Position numbers and translations under genes: made by a program | Part shown: positions 1 to 19,548 of the stretch, in pieces | Numbering within the stretch: the first letter of the stretch is position 1 | How the letters are laid out: each line of letters begins with the position of its first letter | From: Raillietiella orientalis | Lineage: Eukaryota | DNA: 20,000 nt | Direction of reading: 5' to 3' | NCBI GenBank assembly: GCA_036172245.1 | Contig: JAYWIR010000053.1 | Coordinates: 982,006-1,002,005 of the forward strand | Notes under the pieces: model-generated | Seen by the model: the letters and a program-made list of their open reading frames with translations, nothing else | What the model was told of the DNA's origin: nothing | The model's database searches: none

Positions 1-189
1 CTGTTAAAACAATTCCCCAGTTATTTGAGGCTCCAGTGTCTTGATGAAGTAACAACCAATTCCACCCTAATTTGAGGGTTTTCAATCCGGCAAGCAATGG
101 GATAATTGAAGTCAGTAAACTAATTCGAAAACTACAGATATGGATGAAAACAGAACAAAACAAATTAAACCAGAATTATCCACTTTTCA

Positions 190-3100
190 TATGTTCCTTC
201 CTTATCAGAGATTTAGCGCCAGAGGGAATGCCTCTTCCATGAATTCTGACTTCCGAACGAGTTTCCGCATCTTGGTTGGTATCATGAAATTCCTTCTCTT
301 TGACTTCTGCCTTTTTTTAATATACATATTCATTCAAACAGCAGTCCCTTTGATTCTACATGTGGTACTTGCTGATGGATTTGAAGCAAAGCACTTTTTC
401 CATGTTGTCCAAAATGGGTGGCTTGCACATGGTTACCTGAGACGCACTGCCTCCTTCCTACACTGAAATATTCCATATCCATACGAACAAGATTCACCAA
501 CTCTTAATTAGTTTAGCTGATCATACTGGGTGTAGTTGGTTCCCTTGAATCCCTTCCTTCCAGTTTCCTTCCCAAGTAGAAAGAGCCCTTTCTCATGCCA
601 GATTTTCCAGTCTTCTTTCATTTACACACTCTTCAGCTGATAACAAGGAGCAATTGGACAAATTTCCAGAGGATTTGCTCATCCTTTTTGGAGTTTGCAT
701 TTCTCCAGGACTGGTGCCACTACTAGACTCTGGTTGCCAGGCATTGAGGAGAAATTGCTTTCTGTTAGCCTCAGTTCGCCAAGACCTGTATTCTATATTC
801 TCCTGGTCTAATGGTTTCTGCAGTCTTTTGCTTTTGTAGGCCCTACAGCCCTGCGAAAGTAGCATCACTATGTTTGGCATAATGAAATGCTGAGTGCTAA
901 GTATCCTTGCTTACCATATTTACTGCAGCAACCTTTCATGTAAGATGCAACCAAAGGCTGAGAGATCCTCACAAGTGTCTGGCTATTACCCGTAGATTGC
1001 CTGTTGGAAGAAGGTGGGAGTGGTTCGTTTGTTAAGGTGTGGCAGGGAGTTTTGGAGCTTTGAAGAAACTACGACACCAAATATGCCTTCCTGAACAGAT
1101 GTATAACTGTGAGAGTGCTGTCTTTGACATGCCTAAGTATGCTGCCATTCAAGTTGATGTCTCAATCCACATAGGTCCTTAGGAGAGCAACGCCATCAGT
1201 GTAAACGGGAAAACTATTCACCAAAGGCTCGATCGCCTAACGGATGAAGTTCGGGTCCTTTTGATTTAAAGAAAAATTAATTTCCCTCCTTGTGCCATTA
1301 TAAATGAATTCTTATTTCAAATGAGATCATTCCAACCCCAGGTCCAGGAATTGAATCATGGTCTCTACATTCCTGGTTTCCCTTTTCAATTGAGACTTTT
1401 TTCACTTCCCCCATGTAGTCTGCTTAAGTGGTCTACGCATAAGCTGCTGGTTTTGGTGATTTGAGCACTGTAACTTAGAACACCACCGGATTGAACGCTG
1501 CCAAAGCTGCCATCGACACGATTCTTCGTGTGCAGTGTGGACCACTGCTGACAGCAATTCCACTGTACACTTTACACTACATCGTATTGTCACGGAGACC
1601 TCATCAGTTACGAGACTGCCATTTCTGATAACATCGGTTCAACATATGTAAACAAACCTTTTAGAAACCAAAGCAAAACTCGAAATCCAGCGATTCCAAA
1701 GTTGGCTTTGTTAAAATCACCGCTCATTTCTCCTTAATTAAAGTGTATTCCGAGTAAAACTCCAGTCAGTTGATAGATTCATATCTCGTTTCATTATGCT
1801 GAAGCAAATCGTTCTCAGCTCAGGGATAATTCAACGATTCTGTGAATTACTTGGATTTCCAGTGTTGCGATTTCGTAAAGTTTACTTTCCCTGAGGGTTA
1901 CTAATAATCCATTTCGAAATGCAATAAAAAAAATGTTTGTGGCTTCAGTTGGCCATACAAAGAGGTAGACAGTCATGAAGCATTTCTGAAAATTTGGCTA
2001 AATAGGATTGCACATCGGAATCCCACATCTCTTGGCTAACTGTTTCTTGCTCTTTTGCCTTATTAATGGCTTAAGCGTGCAGTTCAAAAAAGTCTCAGAA
2101 AAAAAAGGAAAATCCATCACTTTATACGCATTTCGTGAATCACAGCTTGCAAACGCTTTCCTGCATATAATTCATCTTGAAAATCTCTGCTGTCTGTCGG
2201 TAACTCGGACTTGAAAGAGGGCTACAGTTTCTCCTTCTTACTTTTGACAATCTTTTAATTTTTCATATTTATGTATACAAACACATTTATTATAAGATTA
2301 TGAACAACGAAGATTACGAATAGATGCACCGTTTTCGGTTAGTTTTCTAATAATCTGGTAATAGATTATTACTACTTTAATTCCTACTTGAATTTGTTGT
2401 ATTCTGTATCTAATAATCTGACTGCTTTTTCCTACGGTAGTCAAGGACACTTGTCATTGCATAAAATAGGCATTTATTCATGAATTTCTTTTAAAAAAAA
2501 TTCTCCATGTTCCGCTTGCTAATGGTTCGTCTGCATATTATTATGTATTCTGAAATTCACACCTGAGGGGAATTTTAATACCAAAATTCTTGTGCCTGTT
2601 CACGGTTTCCTGGGTAACAACTGCTGCATCTGGAACAAGGAGACCCTCTTGTGCCTGGTTTGCAATGCTGAGAAAAATTTGAATTCCCAATTTGAAAGCA
2701 GTGAATCACCACAGTATGTTCATCTTCTACAACTGCTTGTTCGTGTCGAATATTCTCCAAGGGGATTTCAGTTTGCTTTCAAACCATGCTAAAATGAAAA
2801 TGGTGGTATTCTTCTGTGTGTATTCGTTTTCTATATAATTTTATTGTACACTTCCTTGTCCAAAGGACAATCTCACTCTTTCCTATGGATCGAGATGTCC
2901 TGGAACTGCCATGCTCTTAACACACTTTATCACAGGAATATCAGCTTTTGAGCTTTCATTATTTATTTTAAAAAATATTAAACAGCTATCAGTTTGCATT
3001 CCATTCTTCTTGATTATCTTAACTTTGACTGCTGCACATGCAGTGGCCTGCAAAGAGAAGACACTTCTGGAGCATCTTGGATCGAACAGCTTCTGACGCC

Positions 3101-5450
3101 TGAATTTCATGAAATGGTATCAGTGGAATTCGCGTTCCTGGGTTTGATCCCTGCTACTTTAAACGCAAGGCGCCGAGAGCGTCCCTGCACTTTCTCTTCC
3201 TTTTTTTCTTTGAATTTGATCTTTTCCTATTACTTTCAAATTTGTTGACAATACCCACTTCGTGATGACTGCATTCGTTTCACATTGCTTTCTGGTCCAA
3301 TGAGATGAGGGATCGCAAAACGACTACTCAATAATTATGCACCCTGCTTTTCTTTGACCTCCAACTTCACTCCTGCGGATATGGTTTCATCTGAGTTTCT
3401 GCTTCTGAACAACAGATGAAAACGTGGAAAGCTGAGTTCTTTAACAAACTCTCTAAAGCAAATGTTTAGAATCCATCGTTTCTACTTCTTGTTGGCCTTA
3501 TTTTCTATGGCTCGAAAGCAATAAAGAATTTACGAAGCAAGAGAACCTGCAGGCCAAGTTCTGTGCCTCTTCCAGCTTCCAGAAGCTCCTTCATCTCTCT
3601 TACAACTTTCTGACTCCCTCTGATACTTTGATTCGTAGATTTCTCAAGAGAAAAAAAATTGCATTCCCTGTTTTCTCGTACGCTCGAAGAAATACTGAAC
3701 GAACAGCCCCTGCTTGCAGTCCCAGTGCTCCTTCACCACTCGGACGGACGACGAACCCTGGACGGAAAAGAACGAGCTCTGGCTTCTTTACATTCCTCGA
3801 GACCTGTCTGGTACCGTCCTCTCGCCGTAATCATTTTCCTGGCGAGCGAGCGCGGAAGACAGCCCAAGACAGGCAAGGTAAATGGGAGCGCACCGACCAC
3901 TCCTTCTCCCGGCCACGTATAACAGCATCTGTGAAAAACAAGCAGCCTTATTCTCTTCCTCCATGCGTCATCTCCTGCATTTTGGATCGACTGCACTGCA
4001 GGGCACGCGTGTTCCAGTTCCGTTTCCGCTCTTCACATCGACAGGAAGCTGCTCCCGTTGCCTCGCTGTTGCTCCATGCGACACCACACGTGCCCTGTCT
4101 GCACGCTGCTAGCATCGCGCGTTCCTCCTCAGCATTCCAGCGGCATAAGCAGATCGGGATCTGCCCCTCGAGGGACTATAGAGGATTCATCAAAGCGCCT
4201 CCGTGAGTCCGCGATTGAAAGAGCTTCGGCTTCCTGCTGTGCGAACACGTCAGCATGACTCTTCGGACCTCGGATGTCGGCAACAAAGGGGCGAGGACTT
4301 CGTCTTGGTCTCCTGGAATCCGATGCGAGATCCTGCCTTTCTTCCAGCTACTCTTGGACGACCTGCCACGGCTGCTCCTCCTTCCTGCAACGGGCAGAAC
4401 CAGGGACCCGTTCTGGCACGCGGAGCTTTTCTTTCCCAAGAACCCGCATTCCGTCCCGTCTGTCGGAAGGCTCACCAGACGCCCAGCGAGAGGATCTGCC
4501 TGGACCGGCAGGGAAGCTGACCCAGCAGCAAATCAAGCAGACGCGCCAATCTTGCCACTTTGTTTGGCGTGCTGTCTGCTCGAGTCGACGCCCTGATGGG
4601 CACGCGGCAGGGAAGCCAGCTCGAAGACCGCATCGCGCCTTCCGCTGGCATCCGCAGTTCGCATCCATCTGACCCGGTGGCCTGCTCATGGTGCAGCTCG
4701 CACAGCGCGCCTCCCACGCCGCGCACTCGTTCGTCACCCGCCCAGGGCGACGGCTCCCCGATTCCTGCCGCTTCGCCCCACCCGGAAAGAGCGGGATCTC
4801 ATCCGGGTGACTGCCCAGGTTGGAACGGGAACACGGAAGTGCGCGAGAGGGACTCGCGTCGGTCTTTTTTCGTCGCAGGAGGAAACGACTGTTGCTGGCA
4901 GTTCCCTTCCCACTTCTTTCCACGGACGAATGGTACGTCTCGATCTTTCGGATACGGAACGCCACGTGGCCAGAGACTGAGCGGCAGCCTATCTTCGGCA
5001 TCCCCTCCCCCCTTTCCATCTGCTCATCCTGGAGGCGGCGAATCCCCGCGGATCCCTTCTGGTGCCTGCGCGAACCATCGCAAGTCGGAACTGAAGAACC
5101 TCCCGACCGTCACTGCGCTGCATTCCCTTCCTGGAAGGGAGCGAAGCCGCTTCCGCTTGGAAATCCAGGAAATCTCCCTTCCAGGAATCCAAAAAAATTG
5201 GACGCCTTGTAGAGTCCCTCCCTTCGAGCCGAATGTGGGACGGCAGCCGAAAGTGTGACCCTTTCTCTACCGCGGTGCGAATCTTCCTTTCCTGCTCCCG
5301 GGACACCCCACGCGCCCGGATCTCTCGCCAGGAGCGTGGGGTCGTCTCGTCGAAGGAAGGGCTTTCATTCGACAAAGAATTCCGCGCTCCCGCGGCTCTG
5401 CAGGTGCCGGTAGCCGGTTGCTTAGAAACCAGTTCCCATCAAAATGTGGC
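190..5450. repeat. Highly diverged direct repeat of ~13190-17080 (remainder of the tandem unit)
   Basis: Short collinear anchors: CC.CATCTTGGTT (265/13269), CCCTGAGGGT (1889/14776), CCTGAGGGGAA (2562/14953), TTGGCCT.ATT (3491/15931), GCTGC.CCCGTTGC.TC (4048/16415), GAATTCCG.GC.CCCG.GG (5377/16964). Offsets step from ~13000 to ~12400 to ~11600. Individually weak, collectively consistent. Confidence 0.65.
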
Positions 5451-6151
5451 AACCCTACAATCTTTGCATCCGCCGACGGATGCGTTTTCTCATCTGGGAA
5501 GAAAGATCGCAAGTAGCGCTGGAATCGACAAGCGAAGTAAAAAACCTGTCGGATCGCTTCTCGGTACTCTTTGGATTCGGCTGCTGCACCACGCTTTGGA
5601 ATGCCTCATGCTTCAACAACCTTTTAGCGTTCGCAAGAGTTACCATGAAGGAACATGCAAAGATTGCGAGGTGAAATTTCGGCTCTCGATTGGGTCGCTT
5701 GTGGCAAAAGTTCACGTGAACTGTAGTCCAAATAGATTCGAGAAAGCATCTGGAGCTATCCTCAAGAAATCCGCGAGTACGTGAGTGGTTGATTCTATTC
5801 ATGCGTGCTTTTCTTGCATGCAACTGGGCATCTGATCCTTGCGAGCGATAGTGACAGGAAAGTCTATGAAGAGCAGCGACTGCAGCTGGAAAACCACCTG
5901 AATTTAGTGACAGTCAAATTCGTTGAGTCGGTCCAAGGTGCCTTGCTTCCTGCATCGAAAACTAAATGGGCTGTCCGTCTAGACCTAGTGAAAGATAGTC
6001 CCCAAGGATGGCATCAGCTACTATGTGGAGCCGGAGAACGATCTCAATGATGCAGAAGAAGAGTAAAGGAAAGAGGCTGCCTTTCTGAAACGCAAGAAAA
6101 GGAAAAAAGTCAAAACAATCCCCTATTGTCTTCTTCCTGTCATTTGGAACG

Positions 6152-9130
6152 AGCCTTAAGATCACTTTTTGAAAAATCAACGGGATTTGGAACCAGCAAA
6201 AGCGAAGGCAGATCACGTGGATCATCAGGTATGACGATATCGTGTGTCTGCCCAAGATTCACGAGACCGACCTGCCTCGAACTCGAGAGACACCAGACGC
6301 CTAGCGGTTCGTAAGCGGAGGTCATGAGAGGAAGGTGGTGGCGATCCTCGTGAAGAACATCGCGCACCATCCTCGAGACGTTTTCTTTGTAGTTTGGTAT
6401 CAGATCATCGGATTCAGATCCGGAAGTGTCCACTACTTCCTGGTGAAGATGTGCGGAAGCTGCCCAGACCCTCCTGCTCATCAAGGTCGCACCAAAGGAC
6501 ATATATATGCCATTTTAACGTTCTGGGCGACGTCATCCACTCCAAAGATGCCCCGGAAGGATGGCGTGCGTTTTACTCGAAGTGCTGGGACCAGAACGAG
6601 AGGCCGACGTCTTCCGAAACATCAAGTGAGGAATCGGCGCGCTGGAGAAGAACATCTTCAAGGATGCGCTCTAAATGCAGTACGAAGACCAAGTTTTGCA
6701 CACGTAGGGAGGAATCGTAAAAGCTTTCCAGAAGCACTGAACTTCCTACTTTCCACAAGATCTCTGCCCAGCAGAGCACAGGGTCATCATGCACCAGCTG
6801 TACAGAAAATTGATCCAGCTGCAGCAAGCTTGGCTCGACGATGAAATTTCCATGGAAAAAGTGAAGAGCGCGCTCGCAGGTCTACGCAAGGACGTGGCGG
6901 CAGGCCTCGATCGTGTGTCCATCTCCCACTATCAAAGGTACCCATACGCCTGCCTACGTCGGTTCCAGGAACTCACACTATGCATCCAGGAAGAACACCG
7001 GCTCCCGGCTTTGTTTACCGAAGCAGGATGCGACTATTGCCCAAGACAAGCGAACTGACGAAAGTCATCCTGTAGCGGCCAATCTACGTTCTCCACTCAG
7101 ATGCCAAGAGATCTGGTATAGCCGCTTGAGTGCGCTTTCACCAGTGCTCGTCTCTCCAACCTAGACGTGCGCGTTGCCAGGATGCCTCGATGAGAAGTGT
7201 GCCTAGCAAGCCCCGGTTACAGCCGGCATATTGGCGATGGCCTGGTTCTGGGCTTCCCGTATATAGAGAAGACCTTCGACACTGTAGACCATAGGATACT
7301 GCTCAAGATACTGAAGAAATTGGGCTTCCAGAGATACTTCAGCCAGCAAGCGGAGAGAATACTCGAGGAGCAGTGCTTCGGGATCTCAACGAACGGATCA
7401 GACACAGGCACAATGCGGATAGGGAGGGGAATTTGCCAAGGAGACGCCCTCAGTTTGATACTGTTCGTCATATGCCTGGAGGCTGTGTCGTCGCTGGTAG
7501 AGACAGAGGCGGTCGCCTTCGAGGAATTTCCAATGATGAATGCAGACTGACTCATCTAGGGTAAACAGACGATCTTCTCTTCTTCCTCAAGGACGAGAGG
7601 ATCAGCTGCGTTCCTCGGTGTAATCAATTCTGTGGGAAAGTCCTTAAGATCAGTGCCCAGATGTTGCAACTCTTATTCACCAGGATCCTGGTTTTCTGCA
7701 CATTAAGGGTGAAGGGAGTTCGAGTGGCGAATGGAGTCAATTATCTAAGAATCCACATCAACGACATCTCAACCGCGCACATTTTGTGGAAAGAAATCCC
7801 AGAGAAAGCAGGAGAAGCATCAGCAAAGTACATCCAGGACGACTTTGGCATGGAGCAAGCGCCAACTTGCGGAATGGCGTTCGATTTCCCAAGGTGCTCT
7901 ATGGAGCAACCTTCAGCCCAATGCACAAGACTCGGATGGAAGTGGAACCGTTGCAGAGAAAGCTTCTGTAGAGACACTGTAAACCGGGGTGAAGCTTGTA
8001 TCATCCTCAAGGTGATAGAATGAGGTCTCTGGCACACTCTATGGAAATCATGTACCCTGGTAACTCCTGAATCTTACTCAGCGATTGGGGCAGGTGGCCA
8101 TTTGCTGTGCACAGCACCCACTCGAGGTTGCTGAGCGGCTCCAGTGGCTTGAAGCAATCACAGGCCAAACAGAAGTGGGTGAACATCGATCCCACGTGGG
8201 AAAGAAAAGACACTGGTGAAAATTTACCAAGTCAAAATGGCGCCTAGGAGCACAGAGCCATGAGAGGAAGAACTGGCCTCGGTAATGCCTTGCTCCCTTC
8301 CCATTCCACGGAAAACGTGGTATGGATAAGCGAAAATCCTAGGCTGAAAATCCGGGATTACAAGCAGTTCGTTAACAGTGGCAACTTTTGTCAGATGCGA
8401 CAGTTCAGATACATCCAGCAGGTGAAAGGAAGATACAACCACAAGAGGCATGAGCTTTGGAAGAATCTTACATCTTGTGCGTGGATGCTGATCACGAAAG
8501 CTAACATTCGGGATGAAATCTTGAATGCACACAAGGACAACTCCCTCGCAATGTGAACCTGCGAGCGGTTGGAGCGACCGTTTGGAGGAGTGTCCACGAT
8601 GCCCTGCTTGTCCTTTACCACGAAGCCGTCCTGAGAGGTTCCAGGACAAAACATCAGAAGGAAAATCTGCAAGATGAGATCTGCGTGGCGTTTTTTTGGA
8701 GACAGGGAAACCCAGCTCCACGTCCTCAGCTCCCTGACGTTGCAATGATATTGGAAGGCACTCAAGGCAATGACAGATCTGCAGAGCAGCACGAGGATGA
8801 CGATCCCGGCAGGACTGTTTAAAAGGAGACGGAAATGTTTCTCGATAAATCCCACGGCCAGAACAAAAGTCGCTCACTTGATCACGAGCATCGTGATCAC
8901 AAGATGGAAGCAACAGAAAAATGCAGCTCCAGCAATGAAAATAGTGAATGAAGAGCTCCTGAAAAAGAGATAGGACTTAAAAGCTGCGCAAGAATCCAAG
9001 CCTAAACAAAACTGAAGAAAACTTCCACATGCGAGGGAACTCCAGTGTCCCCTAGTGCAAACCGTCACACCAAAGCCAACCAATATAAAGTGTAATATGA
9101 AGTGACCCGAGTGACGCCAACTCGCCGTCG
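6152..9130 (+). mobile_element. Degenerate non-LTR retrotransposon (LINE, L1/Tx1-like) ORF2 remnant with internal deletion
   Basis: APE start SLKITF*KINGIWNQQKRRQI...DIVCLPKIHE (6152-6265) and VVAILVKN. RT: EISMEKVKSALAGLRKDVAAGLDRV, IEKTFDTVDH, GICQGDALSLILFVICLE, THLG*TDDLLFF (7550-7585, YADD-equivalent with Tyr to stop). C-terminal zinc-knuckle remnant GDRETQLHVL...YW (~8700-8755) and ITRWKQQKN. Many stops and frameshifts. The 5' boundary and ORF1 are unresolved and may extend to ~5600. Confidence 0.92.
6830..7780 (+). pseudogene. Reverse transcriptase domain of the LINE, frameshifted
   Basis: Ordered RT motifs equivalent to KAPGxDG, DxEKAFDxVxH, GxxQGxxLSxxLF, YADD and YLG (VNYLRI) across several frames. 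Confidence 0.9.
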
Positions 9131-10625
9131 CTCCAAATTATTACGTGCATTGCCGGTTTCTCTCTTGCACCGTAAACATTTCGCCTTCAAGTAAAACCAC
9201 TTCACGGATATGCGGAAAATTGTGACCTTCGGACGAGCATACGGATGAGGAAGCTGTATTCTATTGCTGTCAGGTAGACAAGACTGCAGCGATGTCCAGC
9301 AAAAGATCGTGACGAGCGCAAATTCGATTTTGCTTCACTTTTCTCTGGAGTCGTCTGCAAATTAAGTGAGCACATCATTTCGGGTGCTTACGATTTCAGA
9401 GATATCTGGCAAACAGGCAGCTTTGTCTTACTCTGAATTCTCTTCAGGGCAGCCTTGTTCAGGGGGAAGACTCCGTTGAATGGGATGTTTCCAATGAGCG
9501 CTGACGTTGGATTGTAATGAAAACAGAAGACGGGAACGGATACAACTTTTTAAAGTTTTGAAGATACCACAACCCATGTACGAAAGAAGAGTTTTCTTCC
9601 CCATCTTGAAAAGAATAAAGGGTTGGAAGCAGCATGCAATCCAAGTTGCTCTTTGATTTGCTTCGCTGCGTCCTTATTGCTGACGCCAATATATGACGAG
9701 CTTACTTGGAACCCATCGGCTCGTTTTGGGCACGTTTGGTTTGCGTTGACACCGATGAGGTGCACTTAAAACCACGAAGTTGGTTTTCTTTGCACGGATT
9801 TTCTGACCAAAGTTAGGTGTAAAGGCAGGCTGCTGAGCTGTTCTCCATAGAAAAAGTGTTTCCATCGTTGGGGCATCAGTAGGTGAAAGAATACCTACTG
9901 CACACCCCGAGGAACACTTGGAGTCTATTGCCCATGCCTCGGAATGCGTCGTGCTTGGGGCAAAATCCCCAATCTTGTCACTGATGTTCGCAAAATACAG
10001 CGAATACATGTTCTATTTTGTGTGTTGCGTGTTAATCGCTACCTAACTCCCTTATCCCATTGTCTTTCAAGGGGATTCCCATGTCGTTAGCAGAGTCAGC
10101 GATGGGAAAGCTAAACGACGGAATAGAGGGGGGAAAGCAAAATCTAAAGCGTGTTCTGAAGCTGCAAATTCATTGGAAGATGTGGAAGAAAAATTCATAT
10201 TTCGTAATGCAGAGGAACTCTGCTGCCAGGCAGCAAGAACCTGGCACGTTGCGTATACAGTATCTTCCTGAAGTCTCGAGTAGGGTTACTCGAGGGCAGT
10301 TACTGAGTCGTTCAGTGAAAACGCCCTGGTGCAGGACACATGGGAGGATTCATAAAACCAGAGCTCGTTTCGATAACTGAATTGCGCGGCTGCTAGATGA
10401 AAAAAAAAAGAAGCTGACACTTCATCTTCACTTATCCAAAGCTGATCTTCCTTAATATCTCTGTTATAACGAAGGATCAATTTCAACATCGGCTGAATGA
10501 GTGCAAAAGATATGATAAATACGAGCATGAACAAACGAAAATGGGCTTGCGAACGGTTATTTCTACTGATGTGCTTTCCTTATTTCGTATTCCAAGGTGA
10601 CACGAAAAGAACTAAGAATCGGAAA

Positions 10626-11583
10626 TTACCCAATGCACCATGAGAAATGAACAGCATACGAGCATATTCGACATGGTCTCATTTTAATAGCTAGGCAACA
10701 GCCCTGGTATTTGGAATCGAAGATGATTCCATTCTTCAGTGATTCTATGAAGCCGTATTGCACGTGCCCCACATCATCTTTTGTGAAGTCGACGACAGTA
10801 ATTCGCTCTCCGTTGTATAGGTGGGCTGCATCAGCCTTCCTACAGGAGTGCATGTATATTGCGTCCTTTTTCAGAAATAAAAACGGGGCCATGGTTGTTT
10901 TGCCAGTGTTGCCACAGGTATCGTGACACCAGTGGATTTTTCGTGGATTGGCTTTGCGGCGGATGATGTCCACAATATCCATTTGCCGCTGTTTGAGTTG
11001 GAGCTTTGCCATGGGGTTAGGGTGTTGTCTGGTCCTTGACAGCCGAAAGCACACTTTTATGAAATTTACATTTTTCGAGTAAAACTGTGTGTGATTTTTT
11101 AAAATGTAGAGCTCGTCTGCTCCGTTTTCGATGAGTTGCAGGATCTGAAAGAGGAGAATTTGATTTTATCGTCATCGGTTTTTGGTAACGAACCTGTTCT
11201 TGGTATGATTTTGGTTCGGTGCTTTCGTTGAGAGATCCGTGTGTCCAAGGATTCCTATCTTCTTTACTGCAGTACCGAATGTCGCTCTGTGGCGTGCCTT
11301 CTGCTCGCTCCAAGTGAGTCTTATGGAATGGTTTGCGGTGCGAACCGGGCAAAGTTCTCGGTCCCTTGAGTTGCCTGGAGCCTTGCAAGTGAGGCGTCCC
11401 GGTCTCAGCTGGTTCGCGTCCAATGCAGGCGGAGCAGCACTTCAGTCGGCACCATCGCTTGATGTCTTTGGATTCTTGCTCGGTGCAATTGCAGAAAGTG
11501 ATGCACCAATTGAAGTTAAGTGCGTAAGGCACAGTGACGTACGCGAAATTCACTGAAGGTAAGACTGCGGTGTGGAGGTTCAT
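10626..11583 (-). CDS. rep: CRESS virus replication-associated protein (HUH endonuclease + SF3 helicase); predicted exons 11583-11194 and 11144-10626; C-terminus probably truncated or host-derived
   Basis: RCR motif I WCITFCN, motif II TPHLQG, motif III YCSKE. Walker A in IHWCHDTCGNTGKTT, Walker B ITVVDF, then YGFIESLKNGIIFDSKY (nanovirus/alphasatellite-like helicase segment). The two frames join in phase if GTTCGT...TTTCAG (11193-11145) is spliced: 130+172=302 aa with no stops. No recognisable motif C (h-h-h-x-N) after SKYQG. Confidence 0.88.
11145..11193 (-). other. Predicted 49-nt spliceosomal intron in rep
   Basis: CAG|GTTCGT donor, ATGAC branch-like motif, TTCTCCTCTTTCAG|ATC acceptor. 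Removal joins ...KSYQEQ to ILQLIENGADELY... and deletes the two stops in the downstream frame. Confidence 0.65.
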
Positions 11584-11626
11584 GGTGGTTTATATACTGG
11601 CTAACTGCGCAGTATTTTGTGTTAGC

Positions 11627-11654
11627 GCGATCTGGTCAGTATTACCCACATTGC
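11627..11654 (+). promoter_or_regulatory. Rolling-circle origin stem-loop with nonanucleotide CAGTATTAC (11637-11645)
   Basis: GCGATCTGG-TCAGTATTAC-CCACATTGC: 9-bp stem with one mismatch and one G-T pair, NAGTATTAC in the loop, about 45-70 nt upstream of the rep ATG. Confidence 0.85.
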
Positions 11655-11902
11655 ACAGTAATCATCCGACACCGTGGGAAGCTGTTATGTAAGCATTTTC
11701 ATTTTGAGTGCCTGGTTTTTTTTATCCGCAGTCGTGGAGGACTTAGGGATGCGCAAAAGCGATATGCTTTCCAGCTCAAGTGTCTGGTTTCACCCGACCT
11801 CGTGGAAGGCTAGTGTAGTCGGGTGGGCATGGCCCACCAGCTCAGAGTTGAGAGGGGTGGGGGGATCGAAAAATCCTCAGCAAGCTTTCTAGAAGCCGAA
11901 CG

Positions 11903-12265
11903 GTGGCGCTACGTCGTTTTGTCTCTCGAAAAACGAAGGCATCGAGTCATTCGAAATCGTGGAAGCGTCGTCGACTGACCAGATTGTGGTCCGGTCACGA
12001 CACGTCTAAAGGGAGCCCTCGATGGAATCGCCGTAGGAAACGAGTGCGTTTATATCGTACTCCTCGTTGGAGAACTGTCGTGCTCTTCGTGTAGTGGAAA
12101 GGGATGTTTTGGTCGGTGCTGATCATTACGCGTGTCTGAGAACTGCTGATAATGATGATGCAAATTGTTCGTGGATGTTTGCGTATATTGAGGATTACGA
12201 GAATTTGAGCACGTTATTGAGAACATTAAATTTGGAACAGTATGCGCGTTATTATCGTTATGTGA
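11903..12265 (+). pseudogene. Possible capsid gene 5' remnant (Arg/Lys-rich N-terminal arm), disrupted and truncated
   Basis: ORF 11903-12094 (GTG start) reads LRRFVSRKTK...KRRRLTRLW...RWNRRRKRVRLYRTPRWR. It is divergent from rep across the origin, and another frame continues ...LNLEQYARYYRYVK up to the junction. Based on composition and position only; no family-level match recognised. Confidence 0.45.
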
Positions 12266-12701
12266 AGTTTTCACTTGCGTGCAAGTGATTTCTCCACTTT
12301 GCCATTACGTACCTTCCTTGTTCCGCAGCACCTGAGGTTTCTTCTCGCATTCCCTTTTCCTCTTTCGTTTGTGGTTCAATGAGAGAGACATATTGAATAT
12401 CCGCATGTAAGCCTTTTTCACGAAACAGACATAGAGACAAGTACCAAACTCTAAATAGAATTCAACTAAAAATCTGATCGTTCCGCAACATGTGGTGGTA
12501 ACATATTCCACCGTCAGAAACCTCTATGCTCGAAACCAGTCAGGGAATGCTGAATAACCACGAAGTCGGAGAGGAGATCTGGAGATGACTCTGACAATGT
12601 ATGCTCACCCTATCTGCAGCCGATATCAAAAGATTTTCAGCTCACAAATTCCCTCAACAGTAGGAAAAAGAAAGTCGACAAACAAAATTGCCACCAGCAT
12701 G

Positions 12702-12822
12702 AGGTTGGGTCATACCACGCTGACAACACCGTCTCTCTTTCGATCGGCGAAGTTAAGCAACGTCGGGACGGTCAGTACTTGGATGGGCGGCTGCCTGGGA
12801 ACCCCGGGTGCCGCGAACGCAT
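12702..12822 (+). rRNA. 5S rRNA-derived sequence (probable pseudogene), metazoan type
   Basis: CATACCACGCTGACAACACCG...CGATCGGCGAAGTTAAGCAACGTCGGG-ACGGTCAGTACTTGGATGGGCGGCTGCCTGGGAACCCCGGGTGCCG closely follows the invertebrate 5S consensus. Box A ~12751, box C ~12780. Terminal helix is imperfect and there is no immediate T-run. Confidence 0.9.
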
Positions 12823-13189: not shown

Positions 13190-16100
13190 TGCAGTCTTTT
13201 CTTCATCATGCTGAAAAAAATAACATCCCTTACGTGAAGAAAATCCAACAACGTTGATTCTGATGCAACCACATCTTGGTTTCCAAGGCATCCGTCAGCT
13301 TTAGTCCCTGCAAGACCATCTCAATTTGGATGCTTCAACACGGTTTCCTTACCTTATTTGCACAAAGAGGAAGCACCCATGCATTGTCCCACTCACATGG
13401 CCACTTTCATCAATCTTCGGATCCTCAACGGCGCAAAAACCAAACTCATTTCGGTCCTTTCATCAGCGATATATCGCAACGAGTTCAACCGAAATTCCAC
13501 GTGATTCACCATTTGCGGGATCCCACATCTTCGACGGTGAAAATCCCTCTTCCAAAGGTTCATCGCATCGAAATGCATCCCATGCTAAAAACAGAGGAGC
13601 ATAAGTACCCACCACCAAGATAACACAACCACGCAAGAGCAATCATAGGCAGGGAAGGGTTGCAATTTCAGAATAACCATCAACAGCAGCGCTCTGACTG
13701 GGGCGGTATTCCTTCATCACAGTCAAACAGCTCGAATGAAAATCGAAATGGAAGCATAAATTCAAAGCACTCGCGAACTGCACCTTCCTTCATACTGCTG
13801 CAAGCCGACGGTCCACGCAACGAAACTTCAGGCTCACGGCGAATGGGACATCGAGGCGTGGCGACCACCGCGGGGGACGACGGACTTTCCTCACAAAACG
13901 TAGGAATTCTGCGTTCCAAATCAGCACACGTCCGCACAGCGTTTTCCCACCGATGAAACGTCCACCCAGTCGGCACACCACTCCGCCACGACACATCTTC
14001 TTACTCTCCCGCTCGCCCGCCGTCACGCGCTTCGTCCCGTTGCTCGCGGCTAACCCACTGGCCACAGTCCAGCGGGATGGCCCACGTATGGTCCTCGACC
14101 TCACCAACCTCCAACTGAACGCAAAAGAGCCGGCGCCATTTTGCGAACACGGCTGTAGCCGAAGAGGCCTCCCAGACGAATGTGCAGCATTGAGGACGCG
14201 ACCGTCAACCGCTTCTGCCCTTAAATTGCGGGAAACGCCTGAAAAGTGCACGCACGTTTGTCTCCAGGTACTGCAAGCACCACACTTCGGGACACCCCGT
14301 GAGCAGAAAGCAGCTCGGAGCTCTCCGCAAGCGCCATACGCAGAGACGAAGTTCCGTAAGCAGCAAGAAATGCAAGTCTTTGGCTCTTCCTCTCGAGGGA
14401 CGCAAAGCGTGCGGATGCACTCCGTTTGGTGCCATCCACTGCAACACCATTCTGTGTGAATTGCTGGACGAAATCCAAGCCACAATTCGCACCCACGACG
14501 CGGCGTCAAGAAGGACTGATGGAAAACGTGGTTTTGGTGTAAACTCAAACTCCAATCTTTTGCAAAAGATGTCGGTTCCAGTTGGGAGAAAGCTTTGCAG
14601 AGCCGTCAGCGAAAGGCCAGACACGGACATCTCTTCTGATGTGTTCTCACATCGTCTGCATTTTCAGCAGATGAGCCGATGAGTTTGCCCAATAAACTTT
14701 AAAGACGGTTCGTGTTAAGCATTTATTTCCACAGCACTTTCTCCGTTCACAGTATCTGAACACCGTGATCAGTTCTCCCTGAGGGTGAAACCAATCTTGT
14801 TCTTCCCCACGTCGATCCTCACGGTCACTCTTTCGAAAAACATGGTGGACAAGTACCAGGTCAGTCCATCCACGGATTCTATAAACTTCAAGTAGCAATT
14901 CCCGGAATGCTAAACCAATGAAAAAGCGATTCACCATTTTGCACTTGGTATTCCTGAGGGGAAAGGTACGTTTGGTCTGCTACTGAAGGAAAGGATTTTC
15001 CGGTTCCATAAGGGTAAGATGAGTGAAACAAAGATGGGGGAAACTTTTCGCCGATTCCTCTCTGTGCAGCATCGAACGGAAGCTCTCGCAGTGTCGCTGC
15101 CAAAGTTAAAACGCTTTCTTGCGAAATACCGTGAGCCTTCGAAGAGTGGACATGCAAAGTGGAAGGAGATGTGGCCACTGTGAGCGAAGAAGTTCTTTTT
15201 CGCGCGAGCGCACCGGAAGTCGTGCCATCTCTAGACAACTGGCTCCAGAGGCGCAAATTGCTCTTCGCCTCAGAAAAGAGGACTCGAAGGCAAAGCGAGA
15301 CAAGGCACGAACGAGGAGAACTCAAAAGTAGACTTGCACCGGTATGGGCGCTTACAAGGGAGGGTGTGGGGGAAGGGATCACAGATATGAAACTGCATCT
15401 CGTACGACAAATGTACCGGCGTCGTATCAGAAAGAAGGTACACGGAACTATTCGCGAACTTTTTTTTTTTGGAGGCGGAGCACTATCAAACAAATCACGT
15501 ACCTTCCAAATGTAATCTTCGGACTTAAGAAGCAATTGGAAATTCATACTTAATTTCACAGCTATGTCTATAAAGCTGTCAGGGCTACAGGGCACCTGGA
15601 ATAACAGTTTAGAAAACTAGGTTCGATGCAAACCGTGGACTACAAACCTTATACAGGCTTTCCCCTGCATCCTTGAAACCATTTAATTTCTGGACGAGTG
15701 TTTCAAGGAAGAAAGGTGGTATCCTAGCAAGCGGGGATTCTAGCTCCAGTATTCCAAGTGCGGTTGTGAAGTCCGCCACTGGTGCCTGATTCTTCTTGAC
15801 GGCTACACTGGAACATACGAAAGGGTATGCTACCTGAAGAAATACATATCTCTACACACAACCCTGTTTCGACTGTGGCTAGCCAATAACAGACATTTAT
15901 AAAGCGACGTGCTGCTCAAACGAATCCTCTTTGGCCTAATTGCAATCGCAGCCGAACCACGCAATGGTGTGACTTTTACGGGGGTCACCGAGATATAAGA
16001 AGGCAACCGGATGACTTCCATCACGATTCCCTCCCGCCAGTTTGAACTCTTGAAGCGCCCATTACACGCCAAACTAGTTCGCCTCGATGCTCTCGAAGGA

Positions 16101-17080
16101 GGGCCCTCGAGGCCTCCCGAGTCCAGCAGCATCCTTCAGCACACTCACGAGGCCACCGATCCGGAATCCACGATTCCCGGAGACGAAACCTCACCGCGTA
16201 AGACATGAGGGAGCAGCATGGACATCAGGGCATACGCTCCTTTCCTGAAATGTCTGCGGACCACAACCACGGTAAGTCACCGTTGTGGCTTGCGTGCGAA
16301 ACGCGCTTTCCCCTTCGAAGGCGGTCAGCATTCAGGTGGTCGTCAAGCGAGGGGGACCACCGGAATATTTTCCCCTCCGCGTGCCGACAGTTCCAAACTC
16401 GCAATTCCTTGAATGCTGCACCCGTTGCTTCCTTTTCTGTCTATCCATTTCAAATGGCGGAAAATTTCCCAGAGTCACGCCAGCACGACTCCAGAATGAA
16501 GCCCTTTTCGATGTGCTCTGCTTTTCCTTTCAGCGGTCTTCGGCGGGAGAGCCATCGCGCCATCAACAGCGAACATTTCCCTCTACTCTCACTCGATTCC
16601 TGGTTCCCCATGGGGAAGCTTTCTCAGCTGCTTGGCGCCGCATGACGCGTTCTTTCGAGCTTCGGATTGCGTTGTGCGCACGCCTTTGGTGCATCATGGG
16701 AACCTCCATTCGGCGTCCAGACCTCTGGTTGACTGGACCAGGTCATGGGGGCACGCGCACGTGCGAGGAAAATTCCCGTGGAGCCTTCTTGCTACCATCC
16801 AGATCTCCTCACCTTCCATCGGTGATTACGTGCTCACCATTTCGAAGCACGGAAGTGTCCTTCCGTTGCGGGGTAATTCGTTGCTGCACGGATCACTTCA
16901 TCTCTTCCAACTTCTCTCCGGCACTTTGAAACGAAAGTCCCCCGGCCTTCCGTTTCACCCAGGGAATTCCGAGCACCCGTGGAAGGGACCCATGCAGTAC
17001 CTTCATTTCCTGGATTGCACTTGAAGGACGCAGGCGAAGAGAAATTCACCGCAGTCAAGGCGTCTGCTGATGCAAAATGA
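13190..17080. repeat. Highly diverged direct repeat of ~190-5450
   Basis: See anchors listed for 190-5450. Confidence 0.65.
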
Positions 17081-17479
17081 GGAATGGGGTTACGGCAGGA
17101 AAACCAGGAGACCGCCTCCTTTCATTCGAACATCACTTCGCGTCCTCTTTTCTCGATGAAACCAAAATGAGTTTTTCGTTGCACGTTCTGATTCGATCTT
17201 CATGATTCCGATGGATTCCAACTCCTCCCTCGTTTCTTCCCGTGGCAACCCGAAGAAAAGGGTAATTACGTCTGGCGATCAGTTTCTCTTCAGTGTGAAC
17301 GGAAAAGCGACTGTGTCCACTCTACCAAAGAACGAACTGTGCTCCGCAACCATCGCACAAACGAGTGGACGGCCACGTACGCTATGTGGTTGTTACCTCT
17401 GAATTGGAAACTTGAAAACCTCTCGATCCTCAGAAAGAGGAAGTGTGATAGCGCCCACTTCGGCATCCTTGTCGAGGAA

Positions 17480-19400
17480 TTGAATTTTGCCTCCATTTTT
17501 GCTGGAATGTTCTGCAAAATAAGTGAGCACATCATTTTGAGTGCTTACGATTTCAGAGATATCTGGCAAACAGGCAGCTTTTCGATTTTGCCGATTGTCT
17601 TCAGGGCAACCTTGTTCAAGGGGAAGACTCCGTTGAACGGTATGTTACCGATGAGCGTTGACGTTGGATCGTAATGAAAATAGGTGACAGGAATGGACAT
17701 AAGTGTTTCAGTTCCTGAAGATGCCACAAGCTTCACCTGAAAGAAGACCCCGTTTCGCCATCTCAGTAAAAATAAAGGGTTTGAAGTAGCATCCATCCAA
17801 GTTCTTCTTTGATTTGCTTCACTGCTTCCTTAATGGTGCCGCGAATATGTGTCTACTGTACTTTGAGCGCACCGGCTCATTTCGGGCAAGTTTAGTTTGT
17901 GTTGACACCAATGTGATCATCTTAAGACCAAGCGAGTGGATGCTTGATAAATGGACACTCCACTGCAGTGCAGTCTGTCCACACAGAACTTCTAAAATGC
18001 TCGTACCTTAGACGTATCTGACGCCACCTTTCCGTCCGCCGGAAATCCGAAGAAGTTGGCTTTCTTCTTGCTGGTGTTCTTGGCAACCTTGGAATCAAAG
18101 GCAAACTTCTTGCGGTGTGCTGTACAGCGAGAATTCGTTTCCATCGTTCGCTGATGAGAAGGAAGGAATACTCACTGCACCACGTGGAGGAGCACTGGGA
18201 ATCGATTATCCACGCTTCGGAATGCGTCGTGCTGGGGGCAAGTTGGACAGTCTTGTCATTGATTTTGGCAGATAACGAGTACATGCCCTGTTTTGTGTGA
18301 TGCATGGTAATCGCTATTCAACTTCTTTACCTCGTTGTTCTTCAAGACAATTTCTTTGATGTTACCAGCGTTAGCAATGGGAAAGCTGAACGGTGGAATA
18401 TGGAAAAAGAAACAAAATTTAGAGCGTTTATAAAACTGCAAAATTTTTGGAAGATGTAGAAAAGTAAGAGGTCATACTTCGTAGTGGAGAGGAATCCTGC
18501 TGCCAAGACGGCAAGAACCTGGCATGTTGAGGTCAGCATCTTCGTTCTGCGACCTGAAGTTCTCTTTTCTCGACGGTTGTTACCGAGTGGATCAGCGAGA
18601 ATTCTTTCGTGCTGGACTCATAAAGGCTAAACCTGAATTTATAGTTCTCTTTGATAATTAAATTGCGCAGCTGCTGGGTGAAAAAAAGCGAAAAATAAAA
18701 AGCAGATGGAACGCGGTGACGATCTTTCTTAATATCCTGGTATAAGTAAGGCTGAATTTTTACATTAACTAACTGGATGGAGAGTGTATAGAGTGTCCGG
18801 GAGTGTATGGTTGGTGATCAGTAATTTCCACTATGTTTTCCTTATTTCATATTCTAAGGTGTCACGAAAAAAACTCACAAATGAAAAATTTACCTGATGC
18901 ATTATGGACAAGAAGCCGAATTTGACAGGACGTATTTCGTCCAGTCAAATTCAAATAAATGCGTCTACCTCTCTCAACTGTCATTTTCATTTGTATGCAA
19001 ATGATTTTTCTCTCTCCCCCATGTGTTTCGTTCCTTGTTCCGCGGCATCTGCGGTTTCTATCTCGCATTCTTGCTTGAGCTTTCGTTTGTGGTTCAATGT
19101 GGGAGACCTTCTGAACATCCATGTGTAAGCTCTCTTCCCAGGAAATGGTCGTAGAGACCGGTAACACCCTCCCGTTAGAATTGAAGTGAAAATTCGATCG
19201 CGCAGCAGCATGTCGTGGTACCACATTCCAGCGTGAGAAAACTCCTTGCAGGAACCCTGAAGTGGAAGTGGGATGACCACAAGCTAGGAAAGAAAATATG
19301 AAGATCACCCCGACAATGATTTCTGCCCTCTCCAGCCGACCTCAGAAGAGTGGCAGCTCGCCAATTCACGCAACATTGGGGAAGAGAATGTCCGCATAAA
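17480..19400 (-). pseudogene. Decayed protein-coding region of unknown family (unit copy without virus)
   Basis: Peptides conserved between copies: LH.D.Q.VS.IEPQTK, AAEQG, NHLH..EN, TCQVLA, APSTTHSEAW.IDS.CSS, FHY.PTS.LIGNIPFNGVFPLNK.ALK, LPVCQISLKS. In LIGNIPFNGVFPLNKVALK, 5 of 6 substitutions are synonymous in the minus frame. Stops and frameshifts present. Confidence 0.7.
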
Positions 19401-19429
19401 AGACTTCCGCTATGAAGGTATTTGGCAAC

Positions 19430-19548
19430 TTCCCCGGCCACATCACACCGAAAGCACCGCCTCTCGTTCAATCGAAGGATTTAAACAGCATCAGGCCAGA
19501 CCAGGAATTGCATGGACGACCGTCTGGAAACCTAGGGTGCTGCAACGT
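19430..19548 (+). pseudogene. Second, more decayed 5S rRNA pseudogene
   Basis: GGCCACATCACACCGAAAGCACCGCCTCTCGTTCAATCGAAGGATTTAAACAGCATCAGGCC...GCATGGACGACCGTCTGGAAACCTAGGGTGCTGCAAC is collinear with 5S, is followed by T6, and sits at the position paralogous to 12702-12822. Confidence 0.8.

Follow-up and report, generated by a model that had tools for sequence, protein, structure and literature searches.

The window, by which we mean the whole 20,000-nt stretch analysed, contains a CRESS-DNA virus segment of about 1.62 kb at positions 10643-12266, lying within eukaryotic non-coding DNA. The analysis confirmed it as a real endogenous viral element, of the same kind as known CRESS-derived elements. 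With a probability of roughly 0.85, we consider it to be an integrated CRESS virus, a piece of the replicative form that was joined non-homologously after the host segment had been copied, and that brought with it rep, the origin and the probable start of cap. The following features were recognised.

10643-12266, no strand: whole viral insert, about 1,624 nt, bounded by the homology of its flanks to the sister unit
10644-11144, minus strand: viral part of rep exon 2, comprising linker and SF3 helicase (phmmer to the helicase halves of relatives)
10785-10796, minus strand: Walker B VVDF, in rep exon 2
10893-10913, minus strand: Walker A GNTGKTT, in rep exon 2
11145-11193, minus strand: putative 49-nt spliceosomal intron in rep, phase 0, with donor CAG/GTTCGT and a pyrimidine-rich tract followed by acceptor TTTCAG/AT
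11194-11583, minus strand: rep exon 1, HUH rolling-circle endonuclease domain, 130 codons from the ATG at 11583 (Pfam, PDB, HMMER)
11263-11274, minus strand: motif III YCSK, in rep exon 1 (sequence reading)
11380-11394, minus strand: motif II PHLQG, in rep exon 1 (sequence reading)
11488-11505, minus strand: motif I CITFCN, in rep exon 1 (sequence reading)
11600-11626, plus strand: second small hairpin, 6-bp stem 11600-11605 / 11621-11626, loop with CAGTATTTT (repeat search and sequence reading)
11627-11654, plus strand: origin-like stem-loop, arms 11627-11635 / 11646-11654, loop of T and the nonamer CAGTATTAC (sequence reading and architecture control)
11852-12094, plus strand: Arg-rich frame, stop to stop 11852-12091, listed ORF 11903-12094 (composition and position)
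12037-12266, plus strand: cap-like arm, second open frame, not in frame with the Arg-rich one and truncated by the right junction (ORF list)
18906-18983, plus strand: sister site matching the insertion point (blastn and pairwise alignments)

The first minus-strand frame of rep (11583..11194) matched Pfam Viral_Rep (PF02407) at E 6.5e-7, with 30 bits against a cut-off of 26, and the circovirus Rep nuclease structures in the PDB (best 7kii_A, E 1.4e-7). A HMMER search with this exon among 1.84 billion representatives returned 1305 proteins at E<=1e-3, the best of them at E 4e-20 and 43% identity. The second minus-strand frame (11144..10629) continues into the host flank and ends with a stop at 10626-10628. 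In phmmer its scores to the helicase halves of the relatives already matched by the nuclease domain were 60-92 bits. Pfam RNA_helicase aligned to it over profile positions 8-87 of 105, below the cut-off (E 0.053), a PDB search with the helicase half gave a chance-level match only and no circovirus Rep, and a PHROGs search returned nothing useful. The Rep motifs reported in the preliminary description are thus real, on the evidence of the two nuclease matches, the Walker A and B motifs and the helicase scores.

Conservation in Rep was assessed in an alignment of 40 relatives. Thirty-four of the 44 columns conserved in at least 90% of them were kept, including HLQG, YxxK, GxxGK and the Walker B aspartate, and HUH motifs II and III as well as Walker A and B are intact. 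Among the 41 conserved positions that are present, seven are changed. Motif I is there with three conserved positions altered (F>I, N>C and Y>C), and in motif C a Val stands where the relatives conserve an Asn. The tail that follows Walker A has 89 aa (median of the relatives 120.5, 5th percentile 98), and the conserved S, D and R columns after motif C are absent because the gene is cut. As read from this alignment, rep is truncated at its 3′ end and the Arg-finger region is gone.

We interpret the break between the two rep frames as an intron. Removal of the putative intron fuses the frames into one open frame of 297 codons. A one-base frameshift in a decaying pseudogene, with no intron at all, would account for the break as well, and we judge this somewhat unlikely. 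There are 12 GT-AG pairs that could restore the frame, so a single good-looking pair is not rare; against this, the 11193/11145 pair has the best splice signals with the best donor, and is the only one with a long pyrimidine tract (11 of 14). Similarly, the first frame stays open for 58 codons past the putative donor, but the second has two stops inside the 49 nt. The distance from motif III to Walker A would be 109 when spliced, close to the median of 110 in 196 relatives, whereas the unspliced distance of 125 is reached by only 4.6% of them. In favour of the frameshift, the length of the linker region is variable among relatives. The ends of the exons are collinear with the uninterrupted relatives P0089 and L035, which also speaks against a frameshift. 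No intron-like split of rep was seen in 80 related loci, a point in favour of the frameshift; two-frame HSPs occurred in nine of them, and all represented wrap-around at contig ends or a second copy. Conversely, rep introns are reported in PMC6186406 for some arthropod-associated CRESS genomes. The preliminary description did not mention an intron.

The origin-like stem-loop precedes the rep ATG by 54 nt and is on the other strand from rep, with the nonamer CAGTATTAC at 11637-11645 of the plus strand. The sequence AGTATTAC was found once in the window, against 0.13 occurrences expected, and at least once in 23 of 200 shuffles. Of the nine positions of the arms, seven form Watson-Crick pairs, one is a G-T pair and one is a mismatch. 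The free-energy fold of the origin region was not better than shuffles (z -0.42), and for this reason an architecture-specific control was used for the hairpin, in which 474 of 39,781 positions (1.2%) matched or beat it. A NANTATTAC hairpin was present in 63 of 68 related genomes of <=3 kb, with perfect stems of 7-15 bp, relative to which the stem here is degraded. The hairpins of relatives mostly have 1-4 nt before the nonamer and none after it, and the origin here has the same architecture. Among 67 hairpins in related genomes, 16 read CAGTATTAC and 26 were antisense to rep. The second hairpin belongs to a 17-nt direct repeat (11600-11616 and 11627-11643, the latter in the origin arm; 76% identical). 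The hairpin proposed in the preliminary description therefore stands as to its nonamer and arms, with a stem that is imperfect and does not stand out by free energy. The element is unable to replicate in its present state: its Rep has no Arg-finger region and has altered positions in motifs I and C, and its origin has a damaged stem.

On the other side of the origin, the divergent Arg-rich ORF that had been noted earlier does exist at 11903-12094, with a GTG start and no ATG. The 60-aa window from 11897 contains 23 R+K, the highest count among 7028 stop-free 60-aa windows in the six frames of the window. From its composition and position only, this frame is probably the disordered N-terminus of a capsid protein, and the second frame (12037..12266) is possibly the start of the capsid core. 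The largest non-Rep ORF of the 68 related genomes, which in 56 of them is oriented against rep, usually has a basic N-terminus, its first 60 aa having a median of 15.5 R+K and a maximum of 24. Pfam revealed no capsid homology in the cap-like arm. In tblastn to the 80 related loci the Arg-rich frame had 0 matches and the second frame one (E 0.55), phmmer and cluster HMMs of 68 putative capsids gave a best E of 0.14-0.16, and an ESM Atlas search with the arm found no match. The cap-like identity suggested before fits in composition and position, but capsid homology was not found in these searches.

The relatives used for comparing layouts were 80 loci fetched from IMG/VR, mostly of 2.0-2.5 kb, 68 of which had <=3 kb. 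The best identity to Rep anywhere was 43-45%, over the nuclease domain. Among the best 20 of the 1305 representatives, one had an informative name, a cyclovirus Rep (P0005), and one other was a “hypothetical protein”. No close relative was found in IMG/VR viral contigs with exon 1 as the query, in JGI metagenome contigs with exon 2, or among longer proteins in a word-based protein search with exon 2. The nearest named viruses were Anicreviridae (Mulpavirales), with a whole-Rep identity of <=33% over 276 columns. The helicase half scored 82 bits to the Rep of the tentweb spider virus, with 39% identity over 112 helicase columns, and it is of the same helicase type; its separation from the circovirus-type helicases was supported at 100 by the full tree and at 99 by the SF3 tree. 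The insert has its nonamer on the strand of the cap-like arm, and a nonamer on the cap-coding strand is what we take “type II” to mean. According to PMC6186406, the genome of the tentweb spider virus measures 2127 nt, carries TAGTATTAC and is laid out as “type II”. Features that set the insert apart from Anicreviridae are its putative rep intron, of which no equivalent was seen among the 80 related loci, its integration and truncation in place of a free circle, and a cap-like arm in which no capsid similarity was found.

With the Rep of Circoviridae (PCV2 and related; PDB 2hw0, 7lar and 7kii) the insert shares the HUH fold family, and HLQG and YxxK align at E 1e-7 to 1e-5. In contrast, its helicase half had no PDB match to circovirus Rep, and 12 Reps with circovirus-type helicases fell on the opposite side of the fully supported split. 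The four named anicreviruses formed one supported group, and in both the full and SF3 trees the insert Rep was outside any well-supported subset holding them. Its branch was long (2.69, median 0.72), with no supported position inside its clade. By score, Anicreviridae are nevertheless the nearest named relatives of this Rep, which is at most a candidate member of the family. The lineage had been called unclassified at first; there is indeed no supported family position, but with Anicreviridae as its nearest named relatives it is not wholly unclassified.

The extent of the insert was determined from a sister unit 8.2 kb downstream, a diverged copy of the flanks (69-79% identical) without the insert. 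The unit measures 1.9 kb, with a 5S-like sequence at its end. The flanks correspond to it in four blastn segments.

9321-9774 and 17478-17930: left flank and sister, 79% identical
9858-10406 and 18137-18687: left flank and sister, 71% identical
10551-10637 and 18816-18901: left flank and sister, 78% identical
12268-12819 and 18984-19547: right flank and sister, 69% identical

In blastn and pairwise alignments, the homology stops at 10642 and restarts at 12267. The right edge of the insert is at 12266/12267, and the left edge somewhere in about 10643-10700, a junction fixed only to tens of bases because there is a single paralog, 69-79% identical, with 76 unmatched nt. When 267 fetched Rep proteins were used in tblastn, all 407 HSPs were inside 10593-11631, with no second Rep fragment elsewhere in the 20-kb window. 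Many of these alignments stop at 10653, and the left edge is therefore nearer 10643-10653 than 10690, where the preliminary description had placed it, too far to the right. In the sister, the flanks are 76 nt apart (18907-18982), and this stretch has no counterpart in the filled unit; a forced global alignment placed only 2-12-nt matches of it in the insert. The near-contiguous flanks that had been described thus hold as regards the sister and its collinearity, with the junction at 18906/18983 and 76 unmatched nt instead of at about 18960/18985. Collinearity of the flanks with the sister unit, on which the integration had been staked beforehand, was found by both blastn and pairwise alignment. 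There are two copies of the host segment as had been supposed, but they are not strictly tandem, since about 4.6 kb of unrelated DNA separates them.

The surrounding 18 kb contained a degenerate LINE-type RT fragment, 5S rRNA and snoRNA-like sequence. A Pfam scan of the 140 stop-to-stop frames (>=65 aa) that do not overlap the insert, out of 151 in total, produced only a sub-threshold RVT_1 and a sub-threshold EGF_laminin. A word-based protein search with the RT fragment had no match, and in the ESM Atlas the fragment was near eukaryotic RT clusters whose few labelled members (3-4) were nematodes, a weak lead. Allowing for up to 3 mismatches, the window contained no nematode SL1 leader motif. 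The CpG content was not vertebrate-like.

Both ends of the viral piece are cut, rep having no 3′ end and the cap-like arm ending after about 120 codons. Decay is visible in the defects of the hairpin, in the changed Rep positions and in a cap-like arm that has no ATG and extends over two frames. With the cut viral ends and with junctions collinear with an insert-free paralog, this makes integration into host DNA, as first proposed, the best reading. We also considered that rep may be maintained by the host as a transcribed and spliced gene for a truncated Rep, with nuclease and P-loop and no arginine finger, which could for example interfere with related CRESS viruses. We find this distinctly unlikely. 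Its 297 codons without a stop or frameshift after intron removal, next to a broken cap-like arm, are suggestive of it, as are the intact HUH motifs II and III, the intact Walker A and B and the good splice signals. However, an open frame is also expected if the insertion is recent, as 297 codons would stay free of stops with a probability of 0.64 at 1% neutral divergence, 0.42 at 2% and 0.11 at 5%. Furthermore, the changes at conserved positions and the loss of the Arg-finger region do not favour a maintained gene, nor does the presence of a single copy in the window.

CRESS viruses are common contaminants of sequencing samples, and reads of an exogenous one could have been misjoined into a host contig. 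In the assembly as given, the viral sequence has host DNA on either side in one molecule. The open rep would fit a misjoin, being what a live virus would have. Such a chimera is nevertheless very improbable: judged from the paralog, it needs two false joins at collinear points of the host segment, and neither end of the viral piece is complete, rep and the cap-like arm both being cut short. A live virus would also seldom carry such changes as N>C and Y>C in motif I, the altered motif C position, the stem mismatch and a cap-like arm without ATG.

The insertion was probably later than the copying of the host segment, in agreement with the preliminary description. The sister lacks the insert, and an open rep is improbable at the divergence of the flanks. 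The duplicated flanks differ by 21-31%, implying about 10-15% divergence per copy, and the probability of no stop in 297 codons drops to 0.008 at 11% and 0.001 at 15% neutral divergence. That the insertion predates the duplication, with the sister later losing it by deletion, is most improbable: an insert of that age should have stops in rep, with a probability of at most 0.008 for none at 11% divergence or more, and the deletion would have to remove almost exactly the viral DNA. It does gain something from the 76 nt of the sister that have no counterpart in the filled unit, so that this is not a clean empty site.

Under integration after the copying, the parent would have been a virus of Cressdnaviricota of about 2.0-2.5 kb, with a nanovirus-type helicase, and the insert would amount to two thirds to four fifths of its double-stranded replicative form. 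The circle would have opened in the region of convergence of the 3′ ends of rep and cap. This region would have been lost, as would about 76 nt of target DNA, and the viral DNA would have been joined to host non-coding DNA by non-homologous recombination. Left in the window would be a minus-strand rep with its own 49-nt spliceosomal intron and without the helicase end, an intergenic nonamer origin, and probably some 120 codons from the start of cap. Integration presumably took place at the DNA level, since no one mRNA copy could include a putative intron, an origin between genes and portions of two genes that diverge; a retro-copy of a viral mRNA was rejected on the same grounds. A Helitron or other Rep-bearing transposon was also rejected, as the helicase is of the nanovirus-type SF3 and not of a transposon type, and the nonamer origin and the 2-kb relatives favour a virus.

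In kind, there is nothing unusual about the insert: CRESS-derived endogenous elements are on record in their hundreds (PMC3198968). Besides defining a nanovirus-like clade, Liu et al. 2011 listed 302 Rep-like and 3 capsid-like sequences from 35 species (PMC3198968); Dennis et al. 2019 stated that most fixed circovirus sequences come from rep (PMC6372831), and Rosario et al. 2018 included a cyclovirus-like element in a nematode (PMC6186406). Like the endogenous nanovirus-like and circovirus-like Reps, the insert is a Rep sequence of a circular ssDNA virus in a eukaryotic chromosome, outside established families. What appears to set it apart from them is that it retains the origin nonamer with a remnant of the hairpin and a putative rep intron, probably keeps the 5′ part of cap in its native divergent arrangement, and is accompanied by a paralogous insert-free site in the same 20 kb. 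The term “stem-loop” has 0 occurrences in Liu et al. 2011 (PMC3198968). More of the virus layout is kept here than in most such viral fossils, and the preservation of layout that had been claimed was borne out, with rep, origin and a divergent second arm all present.

Of families such as Anicreviridae, almost nothing is known but sequences “associated with” animals (PMC11945456; PMC6186406), so that the true hosts are mostly a matter of deduction. Direct evidence that a virus of the wider Anicreviridae-like group replicated in the past in the nucleus of this organism or its ancestors comes from an integrated copy that has host DNA on both sides, an insert-free paralog and a putative intron of spliceosomal type. 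As rep, the origin and the probable start of cap are in their native arrangement, the genome layout of the lineage is recorded as well, a lineage whose sampled exogenous relatives do not exceed about 45% in the nuclease domain. Should rep prove to be a living host gene, its viral intron would place the replication of the ancestral virus in a host whose spliceosomal introns are short, and the gene would provide a direct host link for an anicrevirus-like lineage known mainly from metagenomes.

As assembled, the insert is a real endogenous fragment of a CRESS-DNA virus, with the following features.

Features of the insert (window coordinates)
11583..11194 and 11144..10629, minus strand: rep, in two frames, start ATG at 11583
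11583..11194, minus strand: first rep frame, 130 codons, HUH rolling-circle endonuclease domain (Pfam, PDB, HMMER)
11193..11145, minus strand: putative intron, 49 nt, GT..AG, donor CAG/GTTCGT, acceptor TTTCAG/AT
11144..10629, minus strand: second rep frame, Walker A (GNTGKTT) and Walker B (VVDF), recognised from helicase halves of relatives
11600-11626, plus strand: second hairpin just upstream of the origin, 6-bp stem (11600-11605 / 11621-11626) enclosing CAGTATTTT
11627-11635 / 11646-11654, plus strand: arms of the origin hairpin, loop formed by T and the nonamer
11637-11645, plus strand: nonamer CAGTATTAC, antisense to rep, 54 nt from the rep ATG
11852-12091, plus strand: Arg-rich frame divergent from rep, 23 R+K per 60 residues
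12037-12266, plus strand: continuation of the cap-like arm in another frame, ending at the junction

The first rep frame matched PF02407 (Viral_Rep) in Pfam (E 6.5e-7, 30 bits, cut-off 26, profile 4-82 of 82), and among solved domains it matched circovirus Rep nuclease structures (E 1.4e-7 to 1.5e-5). A HMMER search of 1.84 billion representatives returned 1305 proteins at E<=1e-3, 16 at E<=1e-10 and none at E<=1e-30, the top match having 43% identity (E 4e-20). Helicase halves of these relatives matched the second frame with 60-92 bits, and the Pfam RNA_helicase profile stayed under its cut-off there (E 0.053). When the window was searched by tblastn with 267 fetched proteins, all 407 HSPs lay inside 10593-11631, in the two rep frames, and no further Rep fragment was found elsewhere in the window. 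Aligned with 40 relatives, rep kept 34 of the 44 columns with at least 90% conservation, including HLQG, YCxK of motif III, GxxGK and the Walker B aspartate; the Rep motifs listed in the preliminary description are indeed present. Motif I had three substitutions (F>I, N>C, Y>C), valine occupied the asparagine position of motif C, and the conserved S, D and R columns past motif C were absent. The tail after Walker A was 89 residues long, a handful of them from the host flank, against a median of 120.5 and a 5th percentile of 98 in relatives. Given this short tail and the missing S, D and R columns, the 3′ end of rep was lost at the left junction.

Judged from its sequence, the 49-nt gap between the two frames is probably an intron. 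It begins at a codon boundary, its excision yields a single open frame, and a pyrimidine tract (11/14) precedes TTTCAG/AT at the acceptor; among 12 frame-preserving GT-AG pairs, 11193/11145 had the best signals. Spacing was measured in 196 relatives, those among the 267 fetched for which a regex detected every motif. Between the motif III tyrosine and Walker A the spliced product spans 109 residues (median 110 in relatives), and the unspliced one 125, a length reached by 4.6% of them. The related Rep protein P0089, which is uninterrupted, was collinear with the rep exons (exon 1 residues 25-119 with 9-103, exon 2 residues 4-152 with 117-264), and at the related locus L035 both exons matched within one frame. 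No intron-like split in rep was seen among 80 related loci; some arthropod-associated CRESS genomes have been reported with Rep introns (PMC6186406). That the gap is a simple frameshift is unlikely.

One copy of AGTATTAC occurred in the 20 kb, where 0.13 would be expected; at least one was present in 23 of 200 shuffles. The origin region was not singled out by free-energy folding (z -0.42); we therefore compared it with the hairpin architecture of relatives. In 63 of 68 related genomes of at most 3 kb, a perfect stem of 7-15 bp carried NANTATTAC in its loop; 1-4 nt preceded the nonamer and, with few exceptions, none followed it. The nonamer was TAGTATTAC in 39/67 of these hairpins and CAGTATTAC in 16/67, on the rep strand in 41/67 and on the opposite strand in 26/67. 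The nine arm positions of the insert comprised seven Watson-Crick pairs, one G-T and one mismatch, which was equalled at 474 of 39,781 control positions (1.2%). The stretch 11627-11654 is a decayed origin hairpin; the nonamer-bearing hairpin described earlier thus stands for its nonamer, but its stem has decayed.

A 17-nt direct repeat (11600-11616 / 11627-11643, plus strand, 76% identical) links an origin arm with part of the second hairpin and brings CAGTATT to two places spaced by 27 nt, the upstream one in the loop of the second hairpin. This hairpin may be a partly duplicated origin, or chance. The motif CGTGGRRG, a pattern picked after seeing the sequence, occurred on the plus strand at 11733, 11801 and 11958, three of six matches in the window (1.78 expected window-wide), with a near-copy carrying one more G at 11666. 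It lies inside two 23-24-nt direct repeats spaced by 68-72 nt (11696-11743, 11768-11811). The repeats in 11666-11965 could be iteron- or promoter-like.

The Arg-rich frame was the most basic of 7028 stop-free 60-aa windows (runner-up 20 R+K). In 56 of the 68 related genomes the biggest non-Rep ORF runs opposite to rep; it has a median of 280 aa, and its first 60 residues contain a median of 15.5 R+K (maximum 24). Because position and composition are as in those genomes, the frame suits a capsid N-terminus, and the cap-like arm is probably the 5′ end of cap. The divergent Arg-rich ORF claimed before was thus recovered, but it lacks an ATG, and searches with Pfam, tblastn, capsid profiles and the ESM Atlas found no homology for the arm.

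A collinear, insert-free copy of the flanks lies downstream, separated from the filled unit by about 4.6 kb of unrelated DNA.

Flank alignments between filled and sister units (blastn)
filled 9321-9774, sister 17478-17930: 79% identity
filled 9858-10406, sister 18137-18687: 71% identity
filled 10551-10637, sister 18816-18901: 78% identity
filled 12268-12819, sister 18984-19547: 69% identity

In the fine alignment, homology stops in the left flanks at 10642/18906 and resumes in the right flanks at 12267/18983, which corrects the earlier boundaries of 10690..12265. The sister flanks, previously described as almost contiguous at ~18960/18985, are collinear but separated by 76 nt without counterpart in the filled unit. 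These extra nucleotides, and the lack of any visible target-site duplication at the insert, fit a non-homologous insertion that deleted a little of the target. At about 1,624 nt the insert is shorter than most relatives, which have 2.0-2.5 kb; what it lacks is the stretch in which rep and cap run towards each other with their 3′ ends.

Divergence between the host copies is 21-31%, which corresponds very roughly to 10-15% for each of them, and an insert as old as the duplication would be expected to have a rep riddled with stops. The 297 viral rep codons contain none after intron removal. With 132 of 2673 single-base changes creating a stop, the probability of finding none is 0.64, 0.11, 0.03, 0.008 and 0.001 at neutral divergences of 1%, 5%, 8%, 11% and 15%. 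Either constraint held rep open, or the insertion took place long after the duplication. We favour the late insertion, which agrees with the order of events first proposed, because changes have already reached the origin stem and several of the conserved residues.

Outside the insert the window looks like non-coding eukaryotic DNA.

Features of the host DNA (window coordinates)
7194-7547 (wider region about 6000-8900), plus strand: degenerate LINE-type reverse-transcriptase fragment, RVT_1 E 7.6e-6, 26.2 bits, cut-off 29.6
12703-12819, plus strand: 5S rRNA ending the filled unit, Rfam 67 bits, several non-canonical helix I pairs
13662-13726, minus strand: box C/D SNORD31-like sequence, Rfam full model, 34.3 bits, E 2e-4, gathering score 40
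19430-19548, plus strand: degenerate 5S-like sequence ending the sister unit, Rfam 24 bits, below threshold

Of 151 stop-to-stop frames of at least 65 aa, the 140 free of overlap with the insert were scanned with Pfam, giving solely RVT_1 and EGF_laminin, both sub-threshold. The closest ESM Atlas clusters to the reverse-transcriptase fragment were eukaryotic fragments of the same kind; their few labelled members were nematodes, at best a faint pointer to the host. Each unit terminates where its 5S or 5S-like sequence has its 3′ end; the duplicated segment, roughly 1.9 kb and stopping exactly there, may be a 5S rDNA spacer unit in decay or some repeat linked to 5S. The first 3.5 kb had a CpG observed/expected of 0.54 and a lower GC (39.5%, 1-3500), and elsewhere the ratio was mostly 0.83-1.08; this CpG content differs from that of a heavily CpG-methylated vertebrate genome. 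Blocks of 56-63% GC at 3500-5500, 14000-14500 and 16000-17000 have long open frames on both strands, which gave no Pfam match.

Rep sequences of circular ssDNA viruses are already well known as endogenous elements. Liu et al. 2011 reported 302 Rep-like and 3 capsid-like sequences from 35 eukaryotes and set up a nanovirus-like clade that belongs to no established family (PMC3198968); rep was the source of most fixed circovirus sequences in Dennis et al. 2019 (PMC6372831), and Rosario et al. 2018 described a cyclovirus-like element in a nematode genome (PMC6186406). A profile (A3) from an alignment of 12 relatives matched 3355 proteins at E<=1e-10, chiefly on contigs of 1.1-3 kb. The first four named relatives were all Anicreviridae, of the order Mulpavirales, which also holds Nanoviridae. 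In a 63-row tree the query grouped with 51 Reps of its helicase type, apart from 12 with a circovirus-type helicase (support 100), on a long branch (2.69, median 0.72) and with a top identity of 33% over 276 columns. The SF3 domain tree repeated this split (support 99) and placed closest the tentweb spider virus (39% over 112 columns), a type II genome of 2127 nt with TAGTATTAC (PMC6186406); the HUH tree, with a top identity of 45% over 89 columns, did not resolve the placement. The domain phylogeny envisaged at the outset thus gives no firm family; by score the nearest named relatives are Anicreviridae, yet the query falls inside no well-supported subset of the 63-row tree. From this virus the insert retains a 3′-truncated rep with a probable intron, an origin in decay and, as a probable third part, the 5′ end of cap.
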